Virus record (IMG/VR): IMGVR_UViG_2778261688_000005
Span: 1 to 10,981 of that record
Direction: 5' to 3' (one strand)
DNA from: a virus
Taxonomy: Duplodnaviria > Heunggongvirae > Uroviricota > Caudoviricetes
Length of the DNA stretch: 10,981 nucleotides
Shown: in pieces, positions 1,632-10,981 of the stretch
Layout of the letters: the number at the start of each line of letters is the position of its first letter
Numbering within the stretch: position 1 is the first letter of the stretch
Notes under the pieces: generated by a model
Seen by the model: the letters and a program-made list of their open reading frames with translations, nothing else
Databases searched by the model: none
What the model was told of the DNA's origin: nothing
Program-made: the position numbers and the translations under genes

Positions 1632-1733
1632 GATAAAGACGGCTTTCTTGCCACAAATGGCAGCACGTTAACCATTCAGTCAAATGGTGCGGCGTTTACT
1701 GCCACAACCATCAAGATAATCGCGGAGCAGTAA
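1632..1733 (+). pseudogene. 3'-terminal 33-codon remnant of an upstream phage gene (probably the tail needle / P22 gene 26 equivalent), truncated by the IS66 insertion
   Basis: Open frame from 1632 (first base outside the IS terminus) to TAA at 1731-1733 encodes DKDGFLATNGSTLTIQSNGAAFTATTIKIIAEQ*. The stop overlaps the next ATG (TAATG), which is typical operon coupling. Identification as tail needle is by synteny only (P22 order 26-14-7-20-16). Confidence 0.4.
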
Positions 1734-2188
1734 TGATTCAGTTCAAACCAACGCGAAACATCGACCTGATCGAAGCAGTCGGAAATCACCCTGACATTAT
1801 TGCCGGGAGCAACAACGGTGATGGATACGACTACAAACCTGATTGCCGTTACTTTGAGGTGAACGTGCACGGGCAGTTCGGCGGCATTGTTTACTATCAG
1901 GAGATTCAGCCGCTGACATTAGATTGCCACGCCATGTACCTGCCAGAGATTCGCGGCTTCAGCAAGGAAATTGGGCTGGCGTTCTGGCGATACATTCTGA
2001 CTAACACCACCGTTCAGTGCGTCACATCGTTCGCCGCACGCAAATTCCGCCACGGTCAGATGTACTGCGCAATGATTGGCCTTAAGCGTGTAGGAACCAT
2101 CAAGAAATACTTCAAAGGCGTGGATGACGTGACTTTTTACAGCGCCACACGAGAAGAACTAATCGACTTCCTGAATCACGGGAGATAG
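1733..2188 (+). CDS. P22 gene 14-like protein (151 aa)
   Basis: ORF sits immediately upstream of the gp7/gp20/gp16-like cassette, in the position of P22 gene 14. GGAG lies 5 nt upstream of the ATG, and the start overlaps the preceding stop. Confidence 0.7.
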   Translation: MIQFKPTRNIDLIEAVGNHPDIIAGSNNGDGYDYKPDCRYFEVNVHGQFGGIVYYQEIQPLTLDCHAMYLPEIRGFSKEIGLAFWRYILTNTTVQCVTSFAARKFRHGQMYCAMIGLKRVGTIKKYFKGVDDVTFYSATREELIDFLNHGR

Positions 2189-2190
2189 CC

Positions 2191-2883
2191 ATGTTATATG
2201 CATTTAAGCTGGGCAGAAAACTGCGCGGCGAGGAACCTTATTGCCCTGAAAAGGGTGGGAAAGGTGGCAGTTCTGATAAAAGCGCAAAGTATGCAGCAGA
2301 AGCTCAGAAGTATGCCGCAGACCTGCAAAATCAGCAGTGGCAGACGATCATGAAAAACCTTGCTCCGTTCACGCCGCTTGCGGAGCAGTATGTTAACCAG
2401 CTTCAGAACCTTTCCAGTTTAGAAGGACAGGGTCAGGCACTTAATCAGTATTACAACTCTCAGCAGTATAAAGACCTTGCAGGCCAGGCTCGTTACCAGA
2501 GTCTTGCTGCTGCGGAGGCTACGGGAGGACTTGGTTCGACAGCCACAAGCAATCAACTTGCTACGATCGCGCCGACTCTCGGTCAGTCTTGGTTATCAAA
2601 CCAGATGAGCAATTACAACAATCTGGCAAACGTTGGGCTTGGTGCTCTGCAAGGTCAGGCAAACGCCGGGCAGACGTACGCCAACAACATGAGCAGCATT
2701 GCACAGCAAAGCGCAGCTCTTGCCGCTGCTAATGCCAACAAACCATCAAGTCTTCAGACAGCAATTAGTGGCGGAACGTCTGGTGCGATTGCCGGTGCAG
2801 GTCTTGCCAGCCTTTTGGGAACATCAACACCTTGGGGCGCTGGCATTGGTGCTGGTATCGGATTGCTTGGCTCGTTGTTTTAA
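2191..2883 (+). CDS. Ejection (internal virion) protein, P22 gp7-like (230 aa)
   Basis: GGGAG is 6 nt upstream of the ATG. The size is close to P22 gp7 (about 229 aa). The C-terminus is Gly/Ala-rich and hydrophobic (GAIAGAGLASLLG...GAGIGAGIGLLGSLF), consistent with a membrane-inserting segment. Position is second in the 14-7-20-16 order. Confidence 0.75.
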   Translation: MLYAFKLGRKLRGEEPYCPEKGGKGGSSDKSAKYAAEAQKYAADLQNQQWQTIMKNLAPFTPLAEQYVNQLQNLSSLEGQGQALNQYYNSQQYKDLAGQARYQSLAAAEATGGLGSTATSNQLATIAPTLGQSWLSNQMSNYNNLANVGLGALQGQANAGQTYANNMSSIAQQSAALAAANANKPSSLQTAISGGTSGAIAGAGLASLLGTSTPWGAGIGAGIGLLGSLF

Positions 2884-2892
2884 GGGGTAATC

Positions 2893-4188
2893 ATGGCTAC
2901 TTGGCAAGGATCAAATGGCGGATTGTTAGCTGGTATCGGCGGCGTCAACTCAAACGCTCCGAGCGTAAATGACATCGGCAATACGCTTCAGCTTATCAGG
3001 CAGAACAATGATATTGAGCGTTCAGGCGCTAACAATGTTGGGCTGACTGCTTTGCAAGGCCTTTCAGGTATTGCGGGGGTGTTTCAGCAGGAAAAGCAGG
3101 CTCAGCGGCAGAAAGAATTTCAGCAGGCATACGCTAATGCTTATGCGTCTGGTGATCGCGGTGCTTTGCGTCAGTTGGCTACTCAATATCCAGACCAGAT
3201 TGAATCCGTTCGTAAAGGCATGGGATTCATTGATGAAGATCAGCGTAATTCTATCGGCACCTTAGCGGCTGGCGCACGCCTTGCGTCATCGTCTCCAGAA
3301 GCAATGCAATCATGGCTGCAAAACAACGCCAAGGAACTGACTCGCGTCGGTGTTGACCCTAATAACGTTGCTCAGATGTATCAGCAGAACCCTTCAGGAT
3401 TTGGTGAGTTTGTTGATCACCTTGGAATGGCTGCTCTTGGTCCGATTGATTACTTCAATGTTCAGGACAAGATGGCTGGTCGTGAAATTGACCGAGGCAG
3501 GCTGGCAGAGACAATCCGCAGCAATCAGGCTGGAGAAGCACTAACAGCGCGTGGTCAGGACATCCAGATACGTGGACAGAACATCAGCGCACAGAATGCT
3601 GCTCTTTCCCGCGAAATACAAAGAGCAGAATTACAAGAAAAGGCTCTGGACAGACAGATAGCCAGAGAAAGCAATCAGTTAAAGCTTGAAGAGCTAAAAC
3701 AGAAACAGGCAGATGTTCGGCAAAAGGCTGACATAGCCCGCGCTGACAGGCAGGCCGCCGCTCAGGGTGCAGTTGATACGTTCAGCACAGCACTTGATTC
3801 TCTCAACGAGATAGAGCAAAGCCCCGGCCTTTCAAAAGCAGTAGGAATTCGCTCAGCGTTTCCAACAGTTCCTGGCTCTGATGCGGCTAACTTTGAAGCA
3901 AGGCTCGACACCTTTAAAGCTCAAACTTTCCTTCCTATGGTGCAGTCCCTTAAGGGTATGGGGGCTCTTTCAGATGCTGAGGGTAAAAAATTATCCGATG
4001 CGGTTGGTGCCCTAAGCCCCAAAATGAGCGAAAAGGCTTTTCGTGACTCTATCGGAAAGATTAGAAATCAGCTTGAAAGCAAGTTGAGCACTGTTAAAAA
4101 ACAGTTTGATTATCAGGATCCAGTACAGAATACGCCAGGACAACAATCTCCTGCTGGCAGTAACTTTTCTTCACTATGGGGTGATTAA
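2893..4188 (+). CDS. Ejection protein, P22 gp20-like (431 aa)
   Basis: AAGGGG ribosome-binding site upstream. Contains a long charged coiled-coil-like segment (REIQRAELQEKALDRQIARESNQLKLEELKQKQADVRQKADIARADRQ). Third in the syntenic cassette; its stop overlaps the next start (TAATG at 4186-4190). Confidence 0.75.
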   Translation: MATWQGSNGGLLAGIGGVNSNAPSVNDIGNTLQLIRQNNDIERSGANNVGLTALQGLSGIAGVFQQEKQAQRQKEFQQAYANAYASGDRGALRQLATQYPDQIESVRKGMGFIDEDQRNSIGTLAAGARLASSSPEAMQSWLQNNAKELTRVGVDPNNVAQMYQQNPSGFGEFVDHLGMAALGPIDYFNVQDKMAGREIDRGRLAETIRSNQAGEALTARGQDIQIRGQNISAQNAALSREIQRAELQEKALDRQIARESNQLKLEELKQKQADVRQKADIARADRQAAAQGAVDTFSTALDSLNEIEQSPGLSKAVGIRSAFPTVPGSDAANFEARLDTFKAQTFLPMVQSLKGMGALSDAEGKKLSDAVGALSPKMSEKAFRDSIGKIRNQLESKLSTVKKQFDYQDPVQNTPGQQSPAGSNFSSLWGD

Positions 4189-6185
4189 TGGCTAAAGCAT
4201 GGAAAGATGTTATCGCCTCTCCACAGTATCAGGCGTTAGCACCAGAACAAAAAGCGCAGGCTCAGGAGCAATACTTCAATGAAGTCGTGGCCCCGCAAGC
4301 CGGAGAAAATGCAGAGCAGGCTAAGCAAGCTTTCTATGCAGCCTATCCATTGCCATCTGTGCAGCCAGTGGAGACACAGCAACCAGTAGCACAGCAACAA
4401 CCACAGCAAAGTGGATTTATGTCTGATCTTGGTGAAGCAGTGAAAGAGACTGGTCGCGGACTGGTGCAGGCTGGCGTGAACGTGGCAAACATACCTGCAT
4501 CAGTTGCCGATGCTGTAACAAGCGCGGCGGCTTGGGCTGGCGGTAAACTCGGCATTGGCGATGGTACATATCAACCAGCGCCACGAGTAACAACGCAGGG
4601 ATTAGAGCAGGACTTTGGCCTTCGGCAAGGTGCGCTGACTCCACAAACGACAGAGGGAAGGGTATTTGCTGAAGCATTGCCTTACCTCACTCCTGCTGGC
4701 GTTGAGAGAGCGGCGGTACAGGCACCAACACTTGCTGGTCGAATTGCTCATGGGGCAACTCGCCTTCTCGCAGAAAACGCAGTTGGATCACTTGCTGCAA
4801 ACAGTATGAAAGATGATGCGGAAGCACTCGCTACCGATTTAGGTGTTGGCGTTCTGGCAGGCGGCGCTATTAACGCTGCTGGACGTGGATTAGGTGCTGC
4901 TTATCGTGGCGTCCGCGGTGCTATTGCGCCAGAAGCGCAGCAAGCTATCAGATTTGCAGAGCGTGAAGGAGTTCCTCTGCACACCACAGACCTGTTACAA
5001 CCCACTTCCCGCGTCGGAAAAATGGCGCAGACTACAGCAGAAAATATCCCTCTGGCTGGCACAAGCGGAATGAGAGCAACGCAACAGGAAGCGAGAAGCC
5101 AGTTGGTGCAGAGATTTGCCGATAAATTCGGTGAGTATGATCCAGCGGTTGTTATTGACAGCCTTAAAGCGAAAACATCAGGAATTCGTCGTGCCGCCGG
5201 TAATCGACTGGAGCAGGTTCAGAATGCTATGGCTGGAGTAAACATTCAGCCTGCGCGAGCAATTCAGCAGATTGATACAGAAATATCTAACCTGCAGAAG
5301 CTTGGTAAGGTCGCCGATAACGAGACTATTTCAAAACTTCAGTCCTATCGTGATGAGCTTGTTCGCAATGCTGGTCCGGATGGTCCGGTAAATCTGGATT
5401 TGAAGCAATTAAGCGATCTGCGCAGCCAGTTCAGAATGGACGTGAAGGGGGAACGACCAGTGTTACCAAACCGTTCCGATGCTGCCATTCAGCGCGTTTA
5501 CAAGGCGATGACAGACGATATCAATGGTGCCATTGGTCAGAATCTTGGCAACGATACTCTCCGTAAATATCAGCAGGCCAATGCCGTCTACGCTGACGAA
5601 GCGGCGAAACTAAAGAATACCAGGCTGAAGAATGTTCTCATGAAAGGCGACCTGACGCCGGAAGTTGTCAACAACATGCTATTCAGCAAGAACAAATCGG
5701 AAATTAAGACGCTGTATAACTCAGTTGGTCGTGTTGGCAGGGCGCAAATGCGCAATGGCATCATTGGAAAGGCGATGGAGAAATCTGGCGGATCCCCTGA
5801 CCAGTTCCTTCGGCAGCTTAACATCCTGCAAAACCAGACTGGCATCACATTTAAAGGTCAGGAAGCCGCTTATCTGAAAGGATTGAAAAACTACCTGCAA
5901 TCCACGCAGCAGGCTGCAAAAGCAGCAGTAACAACACCAACAGGGCAGCAAACCATCCCGTTCATTATCGGGTATGGGACGGCAATGAACCCGGCGACAA
6001 CTGGCGCAGCGGTAAGCTACGGACTTCTTACTCGCGCCTATGAGAGCGAGCCATTCAGAAATGCAATGCTCCGAATGGCAAATACCCCACGCGGATCGAC
6101 AGCGTTTGAGAAAGCCATGCAGCAAGCGCAAAAAGCGATTAATGCACTGACGCAGGGTGCGAAGTCTGATTCGTTGTCAGAATAG
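4188..6185 (+). CDS. Ejection protein, P22 gp16-like (665 aa)
   Basis: Large Ala/Gln-rich protein, last gene of the cassette and translationally coupled to the gp20-like gene. The size is in the range of P22 gp16 (about 609 aa). Confidence 0.75.
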   Translation: MAKAWKDVIASPQYQALAPEQKAQAQEQYFNEVVAPQAGENAEQAKQAFYAAYPLPSVQPVETQQPVAQQQPQQSGFMSDLGEAVKETGRGLVQAGVNVANIPASVADAVTSAAAWAGGKLGIGDGTYQPAPRVTTQGLEQDFGLRQGALTPQTTEGRVFAEALPYLTPAGVERAAVQAPTLAGRIAHGATRLLAENAVGSLAANSMKDDAEALATDLGVGVLAGGAINAAGRGLGAAYRGVRGAIAPEAQQAIRFAEREGVPLHTTDLLQPTSRVGKMAQTTAENIPLAGTSGMRATQQEARSQLVQRFADKFGEYDPAVVIDSLKAKTSGIRRAAGNRLEQVQNAMAGVNIQPARAIQQIDTEISNLQKLGKVADNETISKLQSYRDELVRNAGPDGPVNLDLKQLSDLRSQFRMDVKGERPVLPNRSDAAIQRVYKAMTDDINGAIGQNLGNDTLRKYQQANAVYADEAAKLKNTRLKNVLMKGDLTPEVVNNMLFSKNKSEIKTLYNSVGRVGRAQMRNGIIGKAMEKSGGSPDQFLRQLNILQNQTGITFKGQEAAYLKGLKNYLQSTQQAAKAAVTTPTGQQTIPFIIGYGTAMNPATTGAAVSYGLLTRAYESEPFRNAMLRMANTPRGSTAFEKAMQQAQKAINALTQGAKSDSLSE

Positions 6186-6226
6186 CCTTTCAAACACCAG
6201 GAACGTGCAAAAACCAAATATGTAGA

Positions 6227-6254
6227 ATGCAATATTCATCATATCTCTTTGCAT
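6227..6254. promoter_or_regulatory. Second copy of the dyad motif (ATGCAA-N16-TTGCAT with internal CATCATATC) in the gp16 / mnt intergenic region
   Basis: ATGCAA 6227-6232, CATCATATC 6237-6245, TTGCAT 6249-6254. Same sequence elements as the 6609-6637 site, arranged differently. Confidence 0.25.
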
Positions 6255-6274
6255 AAATCCTCCGTAATGGATGG

Positions 6275-6535
6275 TTAGTTGCTGTCTTTTTTATATAGCT
6301 CCTTGAGCGTATCAAAGACAATTTTCTTAACCATATCAGATTGTTGTTCTGCCATACGCTCTGCATCGTCAATGTAAACTGATGCAGAGCTTTGTTTATC
6401 CAATGATTCTTCAATCGCTGCAATTATCTCTGAGTTCAGCGACCTGTTATTCATCTTCGCACGCTGCTTAATTTTCGCGTGGAGTTCATGCGGAAGTCTC
6501 AAGTGAAACTGCGCCTCGTCGTATTTGCTGTACAT
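6275..6535 (-). CDS. mnt: Mnt-like ribbon-helix-helix repressor (Arc/Mnt family); the ORF extends to an upstream ATG at 6568, but the internal ATG at 6535 aligns with the P22 Mnt start
   Basis: FHLRLPHELHAKIKQRAKMNNRSLNSEIIAAIEESL matches the RHH region of P22 Mnt as I recall it (HFNFRMPMEVREKLKFRAEANGRSMNSELLQIVQDAL). The C-terminus DDAERMAEQQSDMVKKIVFDTLKELYKK matches the Mnt tetramerisation helix (NDAERLADEQSELVKKMVFDTLKDLYKK). Confidence 0.8.
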   Translation of the reverse strand: MYSKYDEAQFHLRLPHELHAKIKQRAKMNNRSLNSEIIAAIEESLDKQSSASVYIDDAERMAEQQSDMVKKIVFDTLKELYKKDSN

Positions 6536-6608
6536 CCTTGATGCCTCACCAGTTGGGTGGAATGGCATCGTAACCTACTGGATAAATACTCAATAGTACC
6601 ATTTCGGT

Positions 6609-6637
6609 ATGCAATCACATCATGGTTGCATCATATC
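6609..6637. promoter_or_regulatory. Dyad element ATGCAA-N11-TTGCAT followed by CATCATATC in the mnt / tailspike divergent intergenic region; candidate operator and promoter region
   Basis: ATGCAA at 6609-6614 and its reverse complement TTGCAT at 6626-6631; the 9-mer CATCATATC at 6629-6637 is repeated on the other side of mnt. It lies between two divergently transcribed genes. Confidence 0.3.
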
Positions 6638-6656
6638 ATTCGTTTGGAGCAATGAA

Positions 6657-8639
6657 ATGTCAGATATCACCGCAAATGTTGTGGTAAGCATGCCTTCGCA
6701 ACTCTTCACTATGGCTCGTTCTTTTAAAGCCGTAGCCAATGGCAAAATTTATATCGGAAAAATTGACACTGACCCGGTAAATCCAGAAAACCAGATCCAG
6801 GTTTATGTGGAGAACGAAGATGGCTCTCATGTTCCTGTTTCGCAACCAATCATCATTAACGCTGCTGGATATCCGGTATATAACGGACAGATTGCCAAGT
6901 TCGTAACTGTGCAAGGCCATTCTATGGCTGTTTATGATGCGTACGGTGCGCAGCAGTTCTATTTTCCTAATGTGCTGAAGTATGACCCGGATCAGCTTGA
7001 GCAGAGGCTCTCTTCTTTTGATGGGCAAAAATATATAGGAGTATGTCCAGACATTGTCACATTACGAACAATAGAGCCAACGGTTGATGGCCAAATGATA
7101 ACTCTTAAGCAACACACAGATGGAACAGGGATTGGTGGTGGTAGATTTCGCGCTGTTTTACATGGTGAATCTTACTCTGATAACAACGGGACTATAGTTA
7201 AAACTGTTGGCGGCTCTGCTTGGTTGCGCATTAATGCTGATGTAGTAAACCCATTGATGTTTGGAGCTTATGGAGACGGTATTACTGATGACACGGAAGC
7301 TGTTAATAATGCAATTGCTTCATCAAGCAATATTGATGGCGTTGCAAACACATACCTTGTATCAGGTAATGGCATACAAATTCAGCATGGTAAAACATTT
7401 AAAAATGCAACAATAACTGAGTCGAAAGCAAGCAATGCCGTTATGCTGAGATTTACAGGTAGTAATTCGGCAATAGAAAACATTATTTTCGATGGTTCCA
7501 ATGGATTAACAAGCAGAGGGGTAATTGTCAACGCTGGTCTTTCTGATATACACATCTACAAATGCAGAGCGACTGACCTTAAAAAACCATTTGTAGGAGT
7601 GTCTGGAGACTATGATAATAATCTTTTCTGTGTTCGAGTAACAATTGAAAAATGTTTCGCCAATAACTGCGGAAATGATGGTACAAATTACGACCGTTCA
7701 ACAATAATATTTGACGGGGTTTCAGGTTGCACTGTAAAAGATTGCTATTTCAGCTCATGCAATTGGGGAATTACTTTCAGACAGCCGTATGACTACCCAG
7801 AGTTAACAAAACCTTATGCGTACTACAACAGAGTTGATGGTTGCTACTTATCCGGGAAGACCGGTTACCCATATAATCAGGGTATCAGCGCGCAAAGCCA
7901 AAAACATTTCTCAGCATCAGGAAACACGATAGAAGGATTTTTAGGTAACGCTATCGATAACCAAAGATGTGACTTTAGTCGCATCGAAAACAATAAACTT
8001 TCATCCGGAGATGATGGTATCTTTTTTGGTGATTTAAACTGCAAGGGCCACGTTGTGACTGGTAACGTGATTACTGGATGTGCAAGGGGTATTAGGGTTT
8101 ACGGTGCCGTTGGAGATTGGGCTAATCAGGCCATGACGGATATCACCATAACCGGTAACATAATAACGGACTCCACCGTAGTAGGCATCTATGTGTACCG
8201 CACGGAGCCGACTAACTCCTTTGCTGGTTTTAACATCACAGAAAATATCATAGACAACTCAGGCACAAGGTCGCTAACCGGCAACACACAAGGCATTCTC
8301 GTAACAGGGTTGTCAGGTGGCGTCGTGTCGAATAACGTTATACGCAATACACGCATGGAAGGGTTAAGGTTCGTTAACTCTGTCGGGGTTGTGGCTGTGG
8401 GTAATTCTGTGACTGGATTCGATTACTCTGCTACGGCGCAAGCTGGTATTTACATCGATGTAACTTCAAGAGGTATACAACTAAGAAATTCAACTGTTTC
8501 ATCTTCAGGTGGTTCAGGTGCAGCAGTTAGAGAAGCGGGCGTTAATAACACGGTCACCGGAACCAGATGGAATGGAGTCACTACTGGGGTTAACTCAACC
8601 GGCACAGGTGCTGTATTGGACGATAACGTTGGATTTTAA
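6657..8639 (+). CDS. Tailspike protein: P22-type head-binding N-terminal domain fused to a right-handed beta-helix (pectate-lyase-like) receptor-binding domain, a putative polysaccharide depolymerase
   Basis: From the ATG at 6657 (GGAG 7 nt upstream) the protein starts [59 protein letters not shown]...VLKYDPDQ, which matches the P22 gp9 N-terminus ([43 protein letters not shown]...). After about residue 115 it diverges into a sequence with a [21 protein letters not shown] motif and repetitive G/N/T/V-rich beta-helix-like segments. The ORF track starts at 6609, but the homology-supported start is 6657. Confidence 0.85.
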
Positions 8640-8668: not shown

Positions 8669-9691
8669 TCACGTTATTATTTTCAATTTATTCTTTATCA
8701 TTATTGGTAAAATTGGTACTATAATTCCGAGAAAAACATACAATATAAATGAGAATTGATTGTATACATTATTTAGCTTCCCATGCTCATGGTTTTCAAA
8801 TCCAAAAAATAGAAATAATAAATTTAACATTGCAAAAACAGATAGATGCCATGACATTATTGTTTTCGAATTGTCTCCTATCATTTTCAATAATCTATTA
8901 TATTTAGATGATAGGATATTGGATATTATTAACACTACAAAGATACATATCAATGATGCTATTGATGTCATAATAAAACCAGATGGGTATGTTGACCATG
9001 CCATTGCACTTTGTTTTATCAATCCAAATGATATCATTGTTCCTGTTATAACTATCAAAATCATTGCTGATATTGGGTTATTTACTGTTAGTGATTGTTT
9101 TTTTAGTGAAAAGCCAAGTAGCATAAACATAGAACCATAAAGTGACTGTGCGGAAACATTATAAATTTGATATCCAGTCTCCTTAAATTTTACTGCGCAT
9201 ATGTTAAGCGCCACAAAGCCAATAATTATTGCAATTATAATTAACGTAATATTTTGGTGTTTAAACTCAGTAGTTACTGAGATTATAATCCTTGATATTA
9301 TTGATGATAAGTAATAAGCAAGCAAAAACCAACAAACAAGAAATAATGGGTTGTTGTGAAAGTTCTTTTCTAGTGGGTTGGTAGTGAACGGTTCGCCAAA
9401 ATACAGTCCTGTAAATTTATTTAGTGTTATTGCTAAAACTCCAGTTAGAATGTACGTAAAAACAATGTATGGGATTATTTTTTTTGATAGTTTTCTCAAT
9501 GCGTTGAACGTAACTATCTCATTTTTTAATGTCAATCCACCAACAAAAAAGAAAAAAGGCATGTGATATAAATACGGATGCATTACATTAAAGAACCCAC
9601 TTGTGTAATGACCTATCACAACAACTATTATGCCGATTGCCTTCATGTAACTTATGGACAAGCTTTGTTCATTGGTAATTTGGTGCATTTT
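8669..9691 (-). CDS. oac: Acyltransferase-3 family integral membrane protein, Oac-like O-antigen acetyltransferase (lysogenic conversion); the ORF extends to an ATG at 9733, but 9691 is the preferred start
   Basis: Polytopic hydrophobic protein of about 340 aa with a conserved His early in the first membrane segment (MKAIGIIVVVIGHY) and an FFFFVGG motif. It sits between tailspike and integrase, as oac does in Sf6 and the gtr genes do in P22. The gene is markedly AT-rich relative to its flanks. The second ATG is preceded by AAGAGA; the first has no Shine-Dalgarno sequence. Confidence 0.75.
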   Translation of the reverse strand, partial: KMHQITNEQSLSISYMKAIGIIVVVIGHYTSGFFNVMHPYLYHMPFFFFVGGLTLKNEIVTFNALRKLSKKIIPYIVFTYILTGVLAITLNKFTGLYFGEPFTTNPLEKNFHNNPLFLVCWFLLAYYLSSIISRIIISVTTEFKHQNITLIIIAIIIGFVALNICAVKFKETGYQIYNVSAQSLYGSMFMLLGFSLKKQSLTVNNPISAMILIVITGTMISFGLIKQSAMAWSTYPSGFIMTSIASLICIFVVLIISNILSSKYNRLLKMIGDNSKTIMSWHLSVFAMLNLLFLFFGFENHEHGKLNNVYNQFSFILYVFLGIIVPILPIMIKNKLKIIT

Positions 9692-9733
9692 TATCTCTTC
9701 ATTTCTATGTGGCAATATTTTCGCAAAAAACAT

Positions 9734-9823: not shown

Positions 9824-10981
9824 TCACTCCACCTTTTCATCAAGCCAGTCCGCCCACCACTGCATCATTTCTCTGCGCTTATCTAGATATTGAGCATGGT
9901 TGTAAATCCCGCGCACAGATCCGCCGTTGGCATGTGCCAGTTGCACTTCAATAGCGTCAGCAGGCCATTCGTGCTCGTTCATAATCGTGCTGAATTCATG
10001 CCTGAATCCGTGACCGCTTTCCAGCCCCTCATAGCCGATTTGTTTGATCACAAGTAGCACCGCGTTCTCGCAGATTGGCTTCTTCTTATCGTTACGCCCT
10101 GCAAAAACAAACTCTGATACTGGTTTGGTGATGGAGCTTAACGTAGTGAGAAGTTCAACCACCTGGTCTGACATCGGGACCACATGAATTTTGCGTCCCT
10201 TCATCACATTGGCGTCGATGGTGATAATCCTGTTTTCAAAATCGACGTTCTTCCATAGCATGGAACGAAGCTCTTTTGTTCTGAGGGCTGTGTAGCGTAA
10301 AACTTTGGTCGCAATGAGCGATACGATACTTCCTGAAAATGTTGCCAGTGCTTTGTTAAATGCCGGGATCTGGTCTGCAGGAAGAAACGGGAAGTTCTTC
10401 TTGCGGTATCCTTTCATGGCGTCAGCAAGGTCAGGTGCCGGGTTATATTTAGCCCTGCCGGTGACAATAGCGTAACGGAAAACCTCGCCGCATCTTCTGC
10501 GGGCTTTATTTGCTCGCTCCATTGCGCCGCGATCTTCAAATCTGCGGATTACTTCCAGCAGTTGCATCGGCTCAATATCCTGAATTTCAAGGCCGCCGAT
10601 GATGGGTAAAATGTCGTCATCAAACATTTTGGCAAGTTCAGTTGCATAGCCTACTGACCAGACTTGCTTCTTGTGCTCGTACCATTCCTTGTAAATCGCA
10701 CTAAAGGAATTGTTGTTAGACGAAGCCTTTTTCGCCTTTACCGGATCGATGCCAACCGAGATGTCTTTCCTCGCAGTCCATGCTTTATCCCTTGCCTCTT
10801 GCAAAGTCATAAGCGGATATTTTCCGACGGTCAGGATTTTCTCCTTACCGTCAATCTTGTAGCGAAGCTGCCATACCTTTTTCCCGGATACAGGGACATA
10901 AAGGTACAGGCCATTACCATCGAGAAGGCGGTATGGTTTTTCTTTCGGCTTTGCTGCTTCAATCTGCTTAACGGTGAGCAT
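9824..10981 (-). CDS. int: Tyrosine site-specific integrase, P4-type (arm-binding N-terminal domain plus catalytic domain)
   Basis: 385-aa ORF. The N-terminus LTVKQIEAAKPKEKPYRLLDGNGLYLYVPVSGKKVWQLRYKIDGKE is the typical P4-family arm-binding domain. The C-terminus carries the catalytic residues in HGFRHEFST...LAHANGGSVRGIYNHAQY (R...HxxR...Y). The start ATG is the last codon of the window, so the true N-terminus could lie a few codons further upstream. Confidence 0.9.
   Translation of the reverse strand: MLTVKQIEAAKPKEKPYRLLDGNGLYLYVPVSGKKVWQLRYKIDGKEKILTVGKYPLMTLQEARDKAWTARKDISVGIDPVKAKKASSNNNSFSAIYKEWYEHKKQVWSVGYATELAKMFDDDILPIIGGLEIQDIEPMQLLEVIRRFEDRGAMERANKARRRCGEVFRYAIVTGRAKYNPAPDLADAMKGYRKKNFPFLPADQIPAFNKALATFSGSIVSLIATKVLRYTALRTKELRSMLWKNVDFENRIITIDANVMKGRKIHVVPMSDQVVELLTTLSSITKPVSEFVFAGRNDKKKPICENAVLLVIKQIGYEGLESGHGFRHEFSTIMNEHEWPADAIEVQLAHANGGSVRGIYNHAQYLDKRREMMQWWADWLDEKVE

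Follow-up and report, generated by a model that had tools for sequence, protein, structure and literature searches.

A lone mnt gene between the gp16 homologue and the tailspike gene of a P22-like prophage is conserved and under purifying selection

Organisation of the locus

The window analysed here, a stretch of 10,981 nucleotides of the IMG/VR virus record IMGVR_UViG_2778261688_000005, carries a lone homologue of the Mnt repressor between a gp16 homologue (stop at position 6185) and the tailspike gene (ATG at 6657), as seen from the list of open reading frames and the sequence itself. The gp16-type DNA ejection protein gene (4188-6185, plus strand) is the final late-operon gene ahead of the mnt module and is convergent with mnt. 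Homologues of gp7 and gp20 were recognised upstream of it by Pfam, and its own homologues in E. coli are annotated as DNA transfer or P22-gp16 family proteins. The mnt gene (6275-6535, minus strand) encodes an 86-aa Mnt-family repressor with an N-terminal ribbon-helix-helix, whose beta-strand reads AQFHLRLP, and a C-terminal tetramerisation helix.

The stops of gp16 and mnt are separated by 89 bp (6186-6274) which contain no recognisable gene; a search of this spacer for a terminator-like site found none, and its RNA folds were no better than those of shuffled sequences (z = -0.4 and -1.4). On the other side, 121 bp (6536-6656) lie between the mnt start (ATG at 6535-6533) and the tailspike start. 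Both distances agree with the 89 bp and about 120 bp given in an earlier, sequence-only reading of this DNA. The tailspike gene (6657-8639, plus strand) is preceded by a Shine-Dalgarno sequence GGAG at 6646-6649, and encodes a protein, starting with MSDITANVV, in which a beta-helix (Pfam Beta_helix) comes after a head-binding domain of the P22 type (Pfam Head_binding, 1.6e-67); the start at 6657 agrees with the PGAP annotation of relatives. The prophage of the window is damaged, as an IS element lies inside its tail-needle gene.

The lone gene is a Mnt orthologue

The sequence-only reading had recognised a Mnt-like repressor in the immI position, and this was borne out by the family matches. 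The reading frame matches Pfam Arc (PF03869, the N-terminal ribbon-helix-helix domain) at 1.1e-14 and Repressor_Mnt (PF11423) at 3.3e-14, the latter over residues 68-93 of a 97-aa version of the frame, as well as the PDB entries 1mnt (5e-19, residues 6-79) and 1qey, the tetramerisation domain (1.7e-8). The identity of the 86-aa protein as Mnt is thus far above chance. It is 49% identical to P22 Mnt, with which it has in common the fold, both domains, the position between gene 16 and the tailspike gene and the orientation against the late operon; the same position and orientation are also found in eps34, L, Gally and ST160. Judged by its domain content, its place between the gene-16 homologue and the tailspike gene and its transcription opposing the late operon, the gene is the Mnt orthologue in the immI position. 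P22 Arc shares with the window protein the ribbon-helix-helix fold with recognition by a beta-strand (PDB 1arq, 1e-3). However, Arc is a 53-aa dimer that lacks the C-terminal tetramerisation helix, and its gene, which shares a transcript with ant, lies across the operator region from mnt.

The mechanical start of the 97-aa frame at 6568 was rejected, and the 86-aa start at 6535 is almost certain: this length is annotated by PGAP in E. coli A11, Escherichia sp. E1V33 and Buttiauxella do not have the upstream ATG, and a Shine-Dalgarno sequence GAGG (6544-6547, minus strand), placed 8 nt before the ATG at 6535, is kept in all mnt-only relatives. An overlapping 77-aa frame (6190-6423) has no family match and was also rejected. 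In RefSeq, Mnt homologues, P22 mnt itself included, are called 'partition protein ATPase'; this name is an annotation error, because an 86-aa protein cannot be an ATPase.

The remaining parts of immI are missing

No match to Arc, Ant and SieA of P22, or to three other Ant proteins, was found in the window by tblastn at E<=1e-5, in keeping with the earlier remark that arc, ant and sieA are absent. The three genes are likewise lacking in Sf101, whose genome is complete and has the same layout, and a tblastn search of the whole of it with Arc and four Ant proteins returned nothing. Neither arc nor ant occurs on the divergent side of mnt in any of about 170 loci of the window's class, and the sar RNA has no Rfam match in the window at E<=1 except one at chance level. 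Compared with P22, the window lacks Pant, arc, sar, ant and sieA, and with them the arc and ant genes that a complete immI region transcribes divergently from mnt.

In P22, Pant is a strong rightward promoter, and the Mnt operator extends over its start. A consensus scan of 6100-6750 found no sigma-70-like promoter on the plus strand, while in P22, used as positive control, the same scan recovered Pant (at 11/12) and also Pmnt. The -35 hexamer of Pant, TTGACA, is present in 7/7 complete immI regions and in 0/11 mnt-only regions; the rightward -10 position is not conserved among the mnt-only relatives either. The scan did report a promoter-like site on the minus strand, CTGACA-17-AATGAT (6663-6635), which we regard as chance, because other leader types have not kept it and shuffled sequences are expected to yield as many hits.

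The mnt-only layout is common and conserved

The sequence-only reading proposed a comparison with other P22-like prophages to see whether the mnt-only arrangement is a conserved variant. Conserved it is, and not unusual. The gp16-mnt-tailspike layout was also found in phages Sf101 and IME10 and in at least 136 of 5426 complete E. coli genomes (the segment made of mnt plus operator in 256 of the 5426), and the mnt-only layout occurs in 227-233 IMG/VR contigs and across Escherichia, Buttiauxella and Serratia. Moreover, it is already in the literature. The variable region of P22-like phages between gene 16 and the tailspike gene is known as the 'ant moron' (PMC2629481), mnt-only ant morons have been reported in ST64T, ST104, Para1 and L (PMC2629481, PMC8022706), and whether a lone mnt has another function or is a remnant has been asked before for phage L (PMC8022706).

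The closest counterparts are gp14 of Shigella phage Sf101 and its equivalent in E. coli phage IME10, which are essentially the module of the window: protein identity is 96-98%, the operator described below is identical and the distance to the tailspike gene is the same 121 bp. The upstream gp16-type gene of Sf101 is, however, a different and longer allele, and the spacer there is 17 bp instead of 89 bp. In Sf101 the gene bears the wrong name 'partition protein ATPase', and IME10 has no annotation for it. Comparable too are the morons of the Salmonella phages L, ST64T, ST104 and ST160/SE1, which likewise have mnt divergent from the tailspike gene but neither arc nor ant (Villafane 2008, PMC2629481; PMC8022706). 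They have in common with the window the loss of the Pant -35, the promoter layout and a leader inverted repeat, but have one more small gene (orf62 or orf64), placed between mnt and gene 16, which the window does not have, and belong to a different specificity class.

Over 54 distinct alleles the mean dN/dS of mnt is about 0.15. A frame of 85-88 aa is present in 88/91 loci of a first set, and the same Mnt N-terminus in 79/80 further loci; between the window's mnt and the Buttiauxella, Serratia and JEP4 types dS is saturated, with dN at about 0.2. The gene is under purifying selection with both Mnt domains kept. The proposal that this is a decaying immunity region is contradicted by these values, together with the spread over three genera, and the lone-mnt layout is neither new nor decaying.

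A putative promoter and a predicted operator accompany mnt

A candidate mnt promoter (6567-6593, minus strand) consists of the -35 TTGAGT (6593-6588), a 15-bp spacer and the -10 TACGAT (6572-6567), and it is the positional homologue of the annotated P22 Pmnt. With such a spacer and with hexamers of 4/6 and 4/6 it stays below the thresholds of the consensus scan, as do its equivalents in L and JEP4. The pattern TTG...TAnnAT is kept in all mnt-only relatives, with a 17-bp spacer outside the window type. An inverted repeat, GATGCC...GGCATC with an inner stem CACC/GGTG (6540-6569), spans the mnt leader and the Shine-Dalgarno sequence and overlaps the -10. It is present in 11/11 mnt-only modules, of both operator classes, and in 0/7 complete immI regions, and the Buttiauxella leader repeat carries the compensatory change GTCC/GGAC; folding of the mnt leader and of the intergenic region was no better than that of shuffled sequences.

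The predicted Mnt operator, GTACCATTTCGGTAT (GTACC-N5-GGTAY, 6596-6610), adjoins the -35 of mnt and lies about 47 bp upstream of the tailspike ATG. Mnt's own promoter, named in the sequence-only reading as a possible target, is therefore a plausible one, because this operator-like dyad occupies the position of the annotated P22 mnt operator (O_mnt), which in P22 too stands directly upstream of the -35. Symmetric variants of the dyad are present in relatives. All 86 matches of the motif (86/86) in 1.07 Mb of fetched loci lay upstream of a window-type mnt, at the same spot. The dyad is single-copy in the whole Sf101 genome, and a search for additional copies in Sf101 and the window gave only two-mismatch matches, at chance frequency. 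Within the window class the arms are fixed while the centre varies (ATTTC, GTTTC, ATTTT, GTTTA, TTAAC), which is what would be expected of a dyad protein site.

The base-contacting beta-strand residues are Q-H-R in the window and H-N-R in P22 Mnt, and the operators differ as well. In the loci compared, the class of the operator-like dyad changes together with that of the beta-strand: PHFNFRM goes with GGTCCAC-G-GTGGACC (P22, eps34, Pluralibacter, Pectobacterium), PQFNLRL/M with AGACCAC-N-GTGGTCT (L, ST160, Gally and the complete immI loci L198 and L202; the L, ST64T, ST104 and ST160 morons are of this Q-N-R class) and AQFHLRL with GTACC-N5-GGTAC. The pairing is no strict code, as an ATATCAC operator accompanies the QFN residues in Phlomobacter. 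The right half of the operator is degenerate in Symbiopectobacterium and Providencia, so decay may indeed be under way in some mnt-only modules. Of the 15 operator positions 3 vary within the window type, against about 25% across the intergenic DNA, which makes the operator no more conserved than its surroundings, in a comparison where divergence is too low to discriminate; the case for the operator therefore rests on the comparison between types.

A mosaic boundary follows directly after the GTACCATTTCGGTAT dyad. Four different tailspike leaders occur after one and the same unit of mnt, promoter and operator, so the module ends just past the dyad. A hairpin, ATGCAATCA...TGGTTGCAT (6609-6631, plus strand), belongs to the tailspike 5' leader, hence to the tailspike module and not to the mnt module, and nearly all other tailspike leader types have a hairpin at the same place, with different sequences.

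What a lone Mnt might do

We consider it probable that the window holds a functional and self-contained Mnt module, composed of mnt, a weak leftward promoter and one dyad operator, in other words a 'mnt-only' ant moron that would be autoregulated. The protein is expected to be tetrameric, as P22 Mnt is, and to bind GTACC-N5-GGTAY at 6596-6610, a site centred at about -43 from the presumed mnt transcription start and adjoining the gene's own -35. As the rightward ant promoter is gone, the mnt promoter would be the sole remaining target in cis, which suggests autoregulation. A weak -35 beside the predicted operator would be compatible with activation as well as with repression. Mnt is said to have activated its own promoter in vitro in the work of Vershon et al. 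in 1987. While the identity of the gene, its two domains, the purifying selection, the widely conserved layout and the lack of arc, ant and sieA are established here, operator binding, the mnt promoter, autoregulation and any benefit to the prophage are inferred. Autoregulation alone, though, fails to explain the selective retention of mnt, and the lone Mnt may also repress the ant promoters of incoming phages or modulate late read-through.

In the first of these scenarios Mnt would act in trans, repressing the ant promoter of incoming phages of the same operator class and thus shielding the prophage from induction by a foreign antirepressor. Classical immI immunity, in the work of Susskind and Botstein, reportedly is just that, with the prophage Mnt repressing ant of superinfecting P22. 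Such a role, which we regard as a tentative possibility, is reconcilable with the autoregulated module and would supply its missing benefit. Immunity by prophage Mnt is summarised in PMC8022706. The operator AAGACCACnGTGGTCT, together with a Q-N-R beta-strand (the L/ST160/Gally class), occurs in complete mnt-Pant-arc-ant regions (IMG/VR loci L197-L203), so targets do exist for the lone Mnt of that class; besides, two specificity classes of lone mnt share one leader and inverted repeat, which suggests that specificity has diversified within the lone-mnt lineage, as it does for immunity specificities. For the window's own class, on the other hand, no ant-promoter target was found in IMG/VR, in searches that were narrow as they used exact patterns: the dyad followed by an arc-like start gave 22 matches, all unrelated, and TTGACA followed by the dyad gave 79 chance matches with no ribbon-helix-helix gene nearby, the biggest group of which falls within a coding sequence of an AT-rich phage. 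The lack of arc or ant on the divergent side in about 170 loci speaks against it too, and the arc'-ant' operon that adjoins the module in JEP4 and T2 has different palindromes. It is a rather speculative extension that lone mnt genes are long-lived, stand-alone immunity genes of prophages, 'anti-antirepressor' repressors that diversify their operator specificity (at least three classes) against the ant promoters of competitors, and that the Q-H-R / GTACC class of the window targets phages so far unsampled.

Control of the tailspike gene seems unlikely. Here Mnt, bound about 47 bp upstream of the ATG, would repress a tailspike-proximal promoter, as the sequence-only reading had suggested, or would act as a roadblock that tunes late read-through into the tailspike gene. 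The P22 region, and perhaps Mnt and Arc, has been suggested by Villafane et al. to affect late transcription into gene 9 (PMC2629481), and almost all of about 170 window-class loci have the tailspike gene on the divergent side of mnt, even where other genes are inserted on its far side; yet simple descent from immI predicts this adjacency too. The loss of Pant in all 11 mnt-only relatives leaves control of a tailspike-proximal promoter unsupported, with no rightward promoter recovered by a scan that does find Pant in P22, the mosaic boundary parts the operator from the tailspike leader, and Sf6 and HK620 express their tailspike without any mnt (PMC2629481). That mnt is a non-functional remnant of a decaying immI, not yet deleted, is quite improbable. 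Its known target is absent, its promoter matches the consensus weakly, two genera have degenerate right operator halves and the window's prophage is itself damaged by the IS element; nevertheless, the low dN/dS, the intact frames with their constant N-terminus, both domains and the layout kept across genera with saturated synonymous divergence, as well as the mnt-only arrangement of inducible, plaque-forming phages such as Sf101 and L, largely refute this reading. An antitoxin of the ribbon-helix-helix type or a plasmid-type partition protein, instead of a phage repressor, is barely conceivable. Weaker Pfam matches to HicB (5e-7) and to a FitA-like ribbon-helix-helix (2e-6) and the RefSeq product name would point that way, but there is no adjacent toxin or ParA-like gene, the neighbours being gp16 and the tailspike gene, the overlapping 77-aa frame matches no family and the protein has the C-terminal tetramerisation domain of Mnt; this reading is refuted by gene context and domain content.

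Significance

The practical value of these results is modest. The lone mnt of P22-like prophages of E. coli and Shigella is under selection and is not decaying. A widespread misannotation as 'partition protein ATPase' is corrected. The predicted 15-bp operator makes the published question on the role of Mnt without ant directly testable. If immunity in trans is true, lone repressors would be a simple and common layer of competition between prophages.

A lone mnt gene lies between the gene 16 homologue and the tailspike gene

The window holds the right end of a P22-like (Lederbergvirus-type) prophage, with homologues of P22 genes 14, 7, 20 and 16 (1733-6185; Pfam DUF2824, P22_gp7 and Inj_translocase), the small mnt gene (6275-6535, minus strand), the tailspike gene (6657-8639; Pfam Head_binding, 1.6e-67, plus beta-helix), an acyltransferase gene of the Acyl_transf_3 family (8669-9733, minus strand, convergent with the tailspike gene) and an IntS-type integrase gene (9824-10981, minus strand). 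The acyltransferase gene, which has different alleles at the same position in relatives, is likely an O-antigen-modifying lysogenic conversion gene. An IS66-family element (1-1631; orfA 1146-1550 and orfB 802-1149, both on the minus strand, with the transposase gene continuing past the left window edge) interrupts the 3' end of the tail-needle gene (P22 gene 26), with the junction at about 1632, the position where prophage homology starts. This junction occurs in none of 5426 E. coli genomes. The interrupted copy is probably defective, but in its mnt region it does not differ from intact prophages.

Pfam assigns the small gene to Arc (1e-14) and Repressor_Mnt (3e-14); the solved P22 Mnt structures are matched too (1mnt, N-terminal domain, 5e-19; 1qey, tetramerisation domain, 2e-8), and the protein shares 49% identity with P22 Mnt. 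A mechanically called 97-aa ORF was rejected as an over-extension (PGAP gives 86 aa; the upstream ATG is absent in other species; the ATG at 6535 is preceded, at 8 nt, by a GAGG). The sequence-only reading had described mnt without arc, ant and sieA, and this was borne out: no homologue of Arc, Ant or SieA was found in the window, nor was a sar RNA, and its gaps are exact (89 bp from mnt to the gp16 stop, 121 bp to the tailspike ATG).

The Pant -35 is lost from mnt-only regions

In the P22 control, a consensus scan scored Pant, the rightward ant promoter, at 11/12 and Pmnt, the leftward mnt promoter, at 10/12; the same scan found no rightward promoter in the window. The Pant TTGACA is present in all seven complete immI regions compared, and an ATGGCA or TCGGCA-like sequence stands in its place in all eleven mnt-only regions, where the -10 position is not conserved. 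These results speak against the tailspike-proximal promoter under Mnt that the sequence-only reading had suggested as a possibility. A leftward TTG...TAnnAT pair at the place of P22 Pmnt is conserved in all mnt-only modules, the spacer of this putative mnt promoter being 17 bp in other modules and 15 bp in the window type (TTGAGT-TACGAT). These putative leftward promoters match the consensus poorly and are not picked up by the scan.

An inverted repeat at 6540-6569 (GATGCC...GGCATC, inner stem CACC/GGTG, with compensatory GTCC/GGAC in Buttiauxella) overlaps the mnt -10, transcription start and Shine-Dalgarno sequence. Every mnt-only module has it, whichever of the two operator classes the module belongs to; complete immI regions lack it and have the Pant -35 there instead.

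A predicted Mnt operator belongs to the mnt module

The annotated P22 Mnt operator lies directly beyond the Pmnt -35 and covers the Pant start; at the homologous position in the window, past a shared CTCAATAG, there is a dyad, GTACCATTTCGGTAT (6596-6610). Across the relatives compared, three classes pair a beta-strand with an operator, PHFNFRM with GGTCCAC-G-GTGGACC, PQFNLRL/M with AGACCAC-N-GTGGTCT and AQFHLRL (the window's class) with GTACC-N5-GGTAC, a correspondence that is not a strict code, Phlomobacter being an exception. The residues that differ between classes align with Arc Gln9, Asn11 and Arg13, which make base contacts in the structure of Arc bound to its operator (Raumann et al. 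1994, as cited in PMC2724298).

In the window's class the arms of the dyad are fixed and the centre is variable, and some versions are fully symmetric, for example GTACCATTTTGGTAC (Buttiauxella) and ATACCATTTTGGTAT (one IMG/VR contig). All 86 matches to the GTACC-class motif in 1.07 Mb of fetched loci lie at one spot upstream of this mnt type; the whole Sf101 genome has a single copy, with relaxed matches at chance level. The right half-site is degenerate in two distant mnt-only relatives, and among loci of the window type conservation of the dyad does not exceed that of the surrounding DNA. Four unrelated tailspike leaders were found downstream of one mnt-promoter-operator unit, and because the breakpoint falls directly past the dyad, the predicted operator is assigned to the mnt module. 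Its centre lies about 43-45 bp upstream of the inferred mnt transcription start and adjoins the weak -35, a placement that, as far as sequence can tell, fits Mnt autoregulation of either sign. In vitro, Vershon et al. (1987) reportedly saw Pant repressed and Pmnt stimulated by P22 Mnt.

Ten tailspike leader types were folded, and nearly all of them have a hairpin 20-30 nt ahead of the Shine-Dalgarno sequence (among them the window, at 6609-6631, and the relative loci L095, L005, L006, L097, L099, L103 and L004). The stems differ in sequence, for example ATGCAATCA/TGGTTGCAT in the window, TTCAAT/ATTGAA in L095 and CCGTAGC/GCTGCGG in P22, phage L and JEP4; the hairpins may be processing, pausing or translation elements of the tailspike message. 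Some relatives (loci L096, L284, L296 and L304) carry an HNH/AP2-type homing endonuclease gene, on the opposite strand, that splits the tailspike gene after about its fifth codon, at the equivalent of window position ~6672; a new tailspike start follows the insertion. Between gp16 and a window-type mnt, E. coli T2 (locus L013, 1671-3863) and JEP4 (L006) have a second, unrelated immunity-like cluster; convergent with mnt, it comprises a truncated mnt-like gene, an arc-like gene, a Bro-N/P22_AR_C antirepressor gene and two unknown genes, and its palindromes (ATGACATCATGGTGATGTCAT) are unlike the mnt operator.

The lone mnt gene is under purifying selection

An ORF of 85-88 aa is present in 88 of 91 loci of the window type, and 54 distinct 86-codon alleles give a mean dS of 0.098 and dN of 0.015 (ratio 0.15). 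Comparison with the versions in JEP4, Buttiauxella and Serratia gives a saturated dS and a dN of about 0.2; a further 80 loci, more divergent than the first, left the picture unchanged. The idea that mnt is a remnant, offered by the sequence-only reading as a decaying immunity region, is contradicted by this ratio and by the intact-length ORFs.

Having weighed this idea together with tailspike control and trans immunity, we consider it fairly probable that the lone mnt is a functional, autoregulated stand-alone module. Control of tailspike expression by Mnt might be suspected, as the divergent neighbour of mnt is almost always the tailspike gene; however, the scan shows no promoter to repress, operator and tailspike leader are separable modules, and the adjacency is likewise expected from descent from immI. 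Immunity in trans against ant-bearing relatives is compatible with autoregulation and is the leading candidate for a benefit, if a rather doubtful one. On one hand, IMG/VR has complete mnt-Pant-arc-ant regions that share the operator and beta-strand of the L/ST160/Gally class, and therefore targets exist for that class. On the other hand, exact-pattern searches of IMG/VR located no complete-region target for the window's class, and in all ~170 of its loci the divergent side is free of arc and ant. A separate arc'-ant' operon (Bro-N plus P22_AR_C), convergent with window-type mnt, does occur in JEP4, E. coli T2 and Serratia; the palindromes of its promoter region are unrelated to the mnt operator. 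The observation made from the sequence stood, while its interpretation did so in part: action of Mnt on its own promoter agrees with an autoregulated module, whereas tailspike control is not supported and decay is contradicted.

Mnt-only modules are common and have published precedents

Phages IME10 and Sf101 match the window at 96-98% identity over the 701 bp that run from the end of gp16 across mnt to the start of the tailspike gene, and at least 136 of 5426 complete E. coli genomes cover this segment in full. The mnt-plus-operator part occurs in 256 E. coli genomes, and IMG/VR holds 227-233 relatives. Neither arc nor ant is found anywhere in the complete Sf101 genome, which has the same layout; the only related item there is a gene of the Rha family in the late region, and it lacks the operator motif. 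RefSeq labels Mnt homologues, P22 mnt included, as 'partition protein ATPase' (NC_027398, Sf101; NC_002371, P22; NC_014900, ST160), and in the IME10 record (NC_019501) annotation is missing for gene 16, mnt and the tailspike gene.

The name 'ant moron' for this variable region comes from Villafane et al. (2008; PMC2629481), who distinguished ten types in sixteen genomes, ST64T, ST104 and Para1 keeping only mnt and one small gene. The interpretation first put forward for this locus repeats a question already asked in print for phage L (PMC8022706). The window is a further mnt-only ant moron, an arrangement already described; its predicted operator-specificity class is new.
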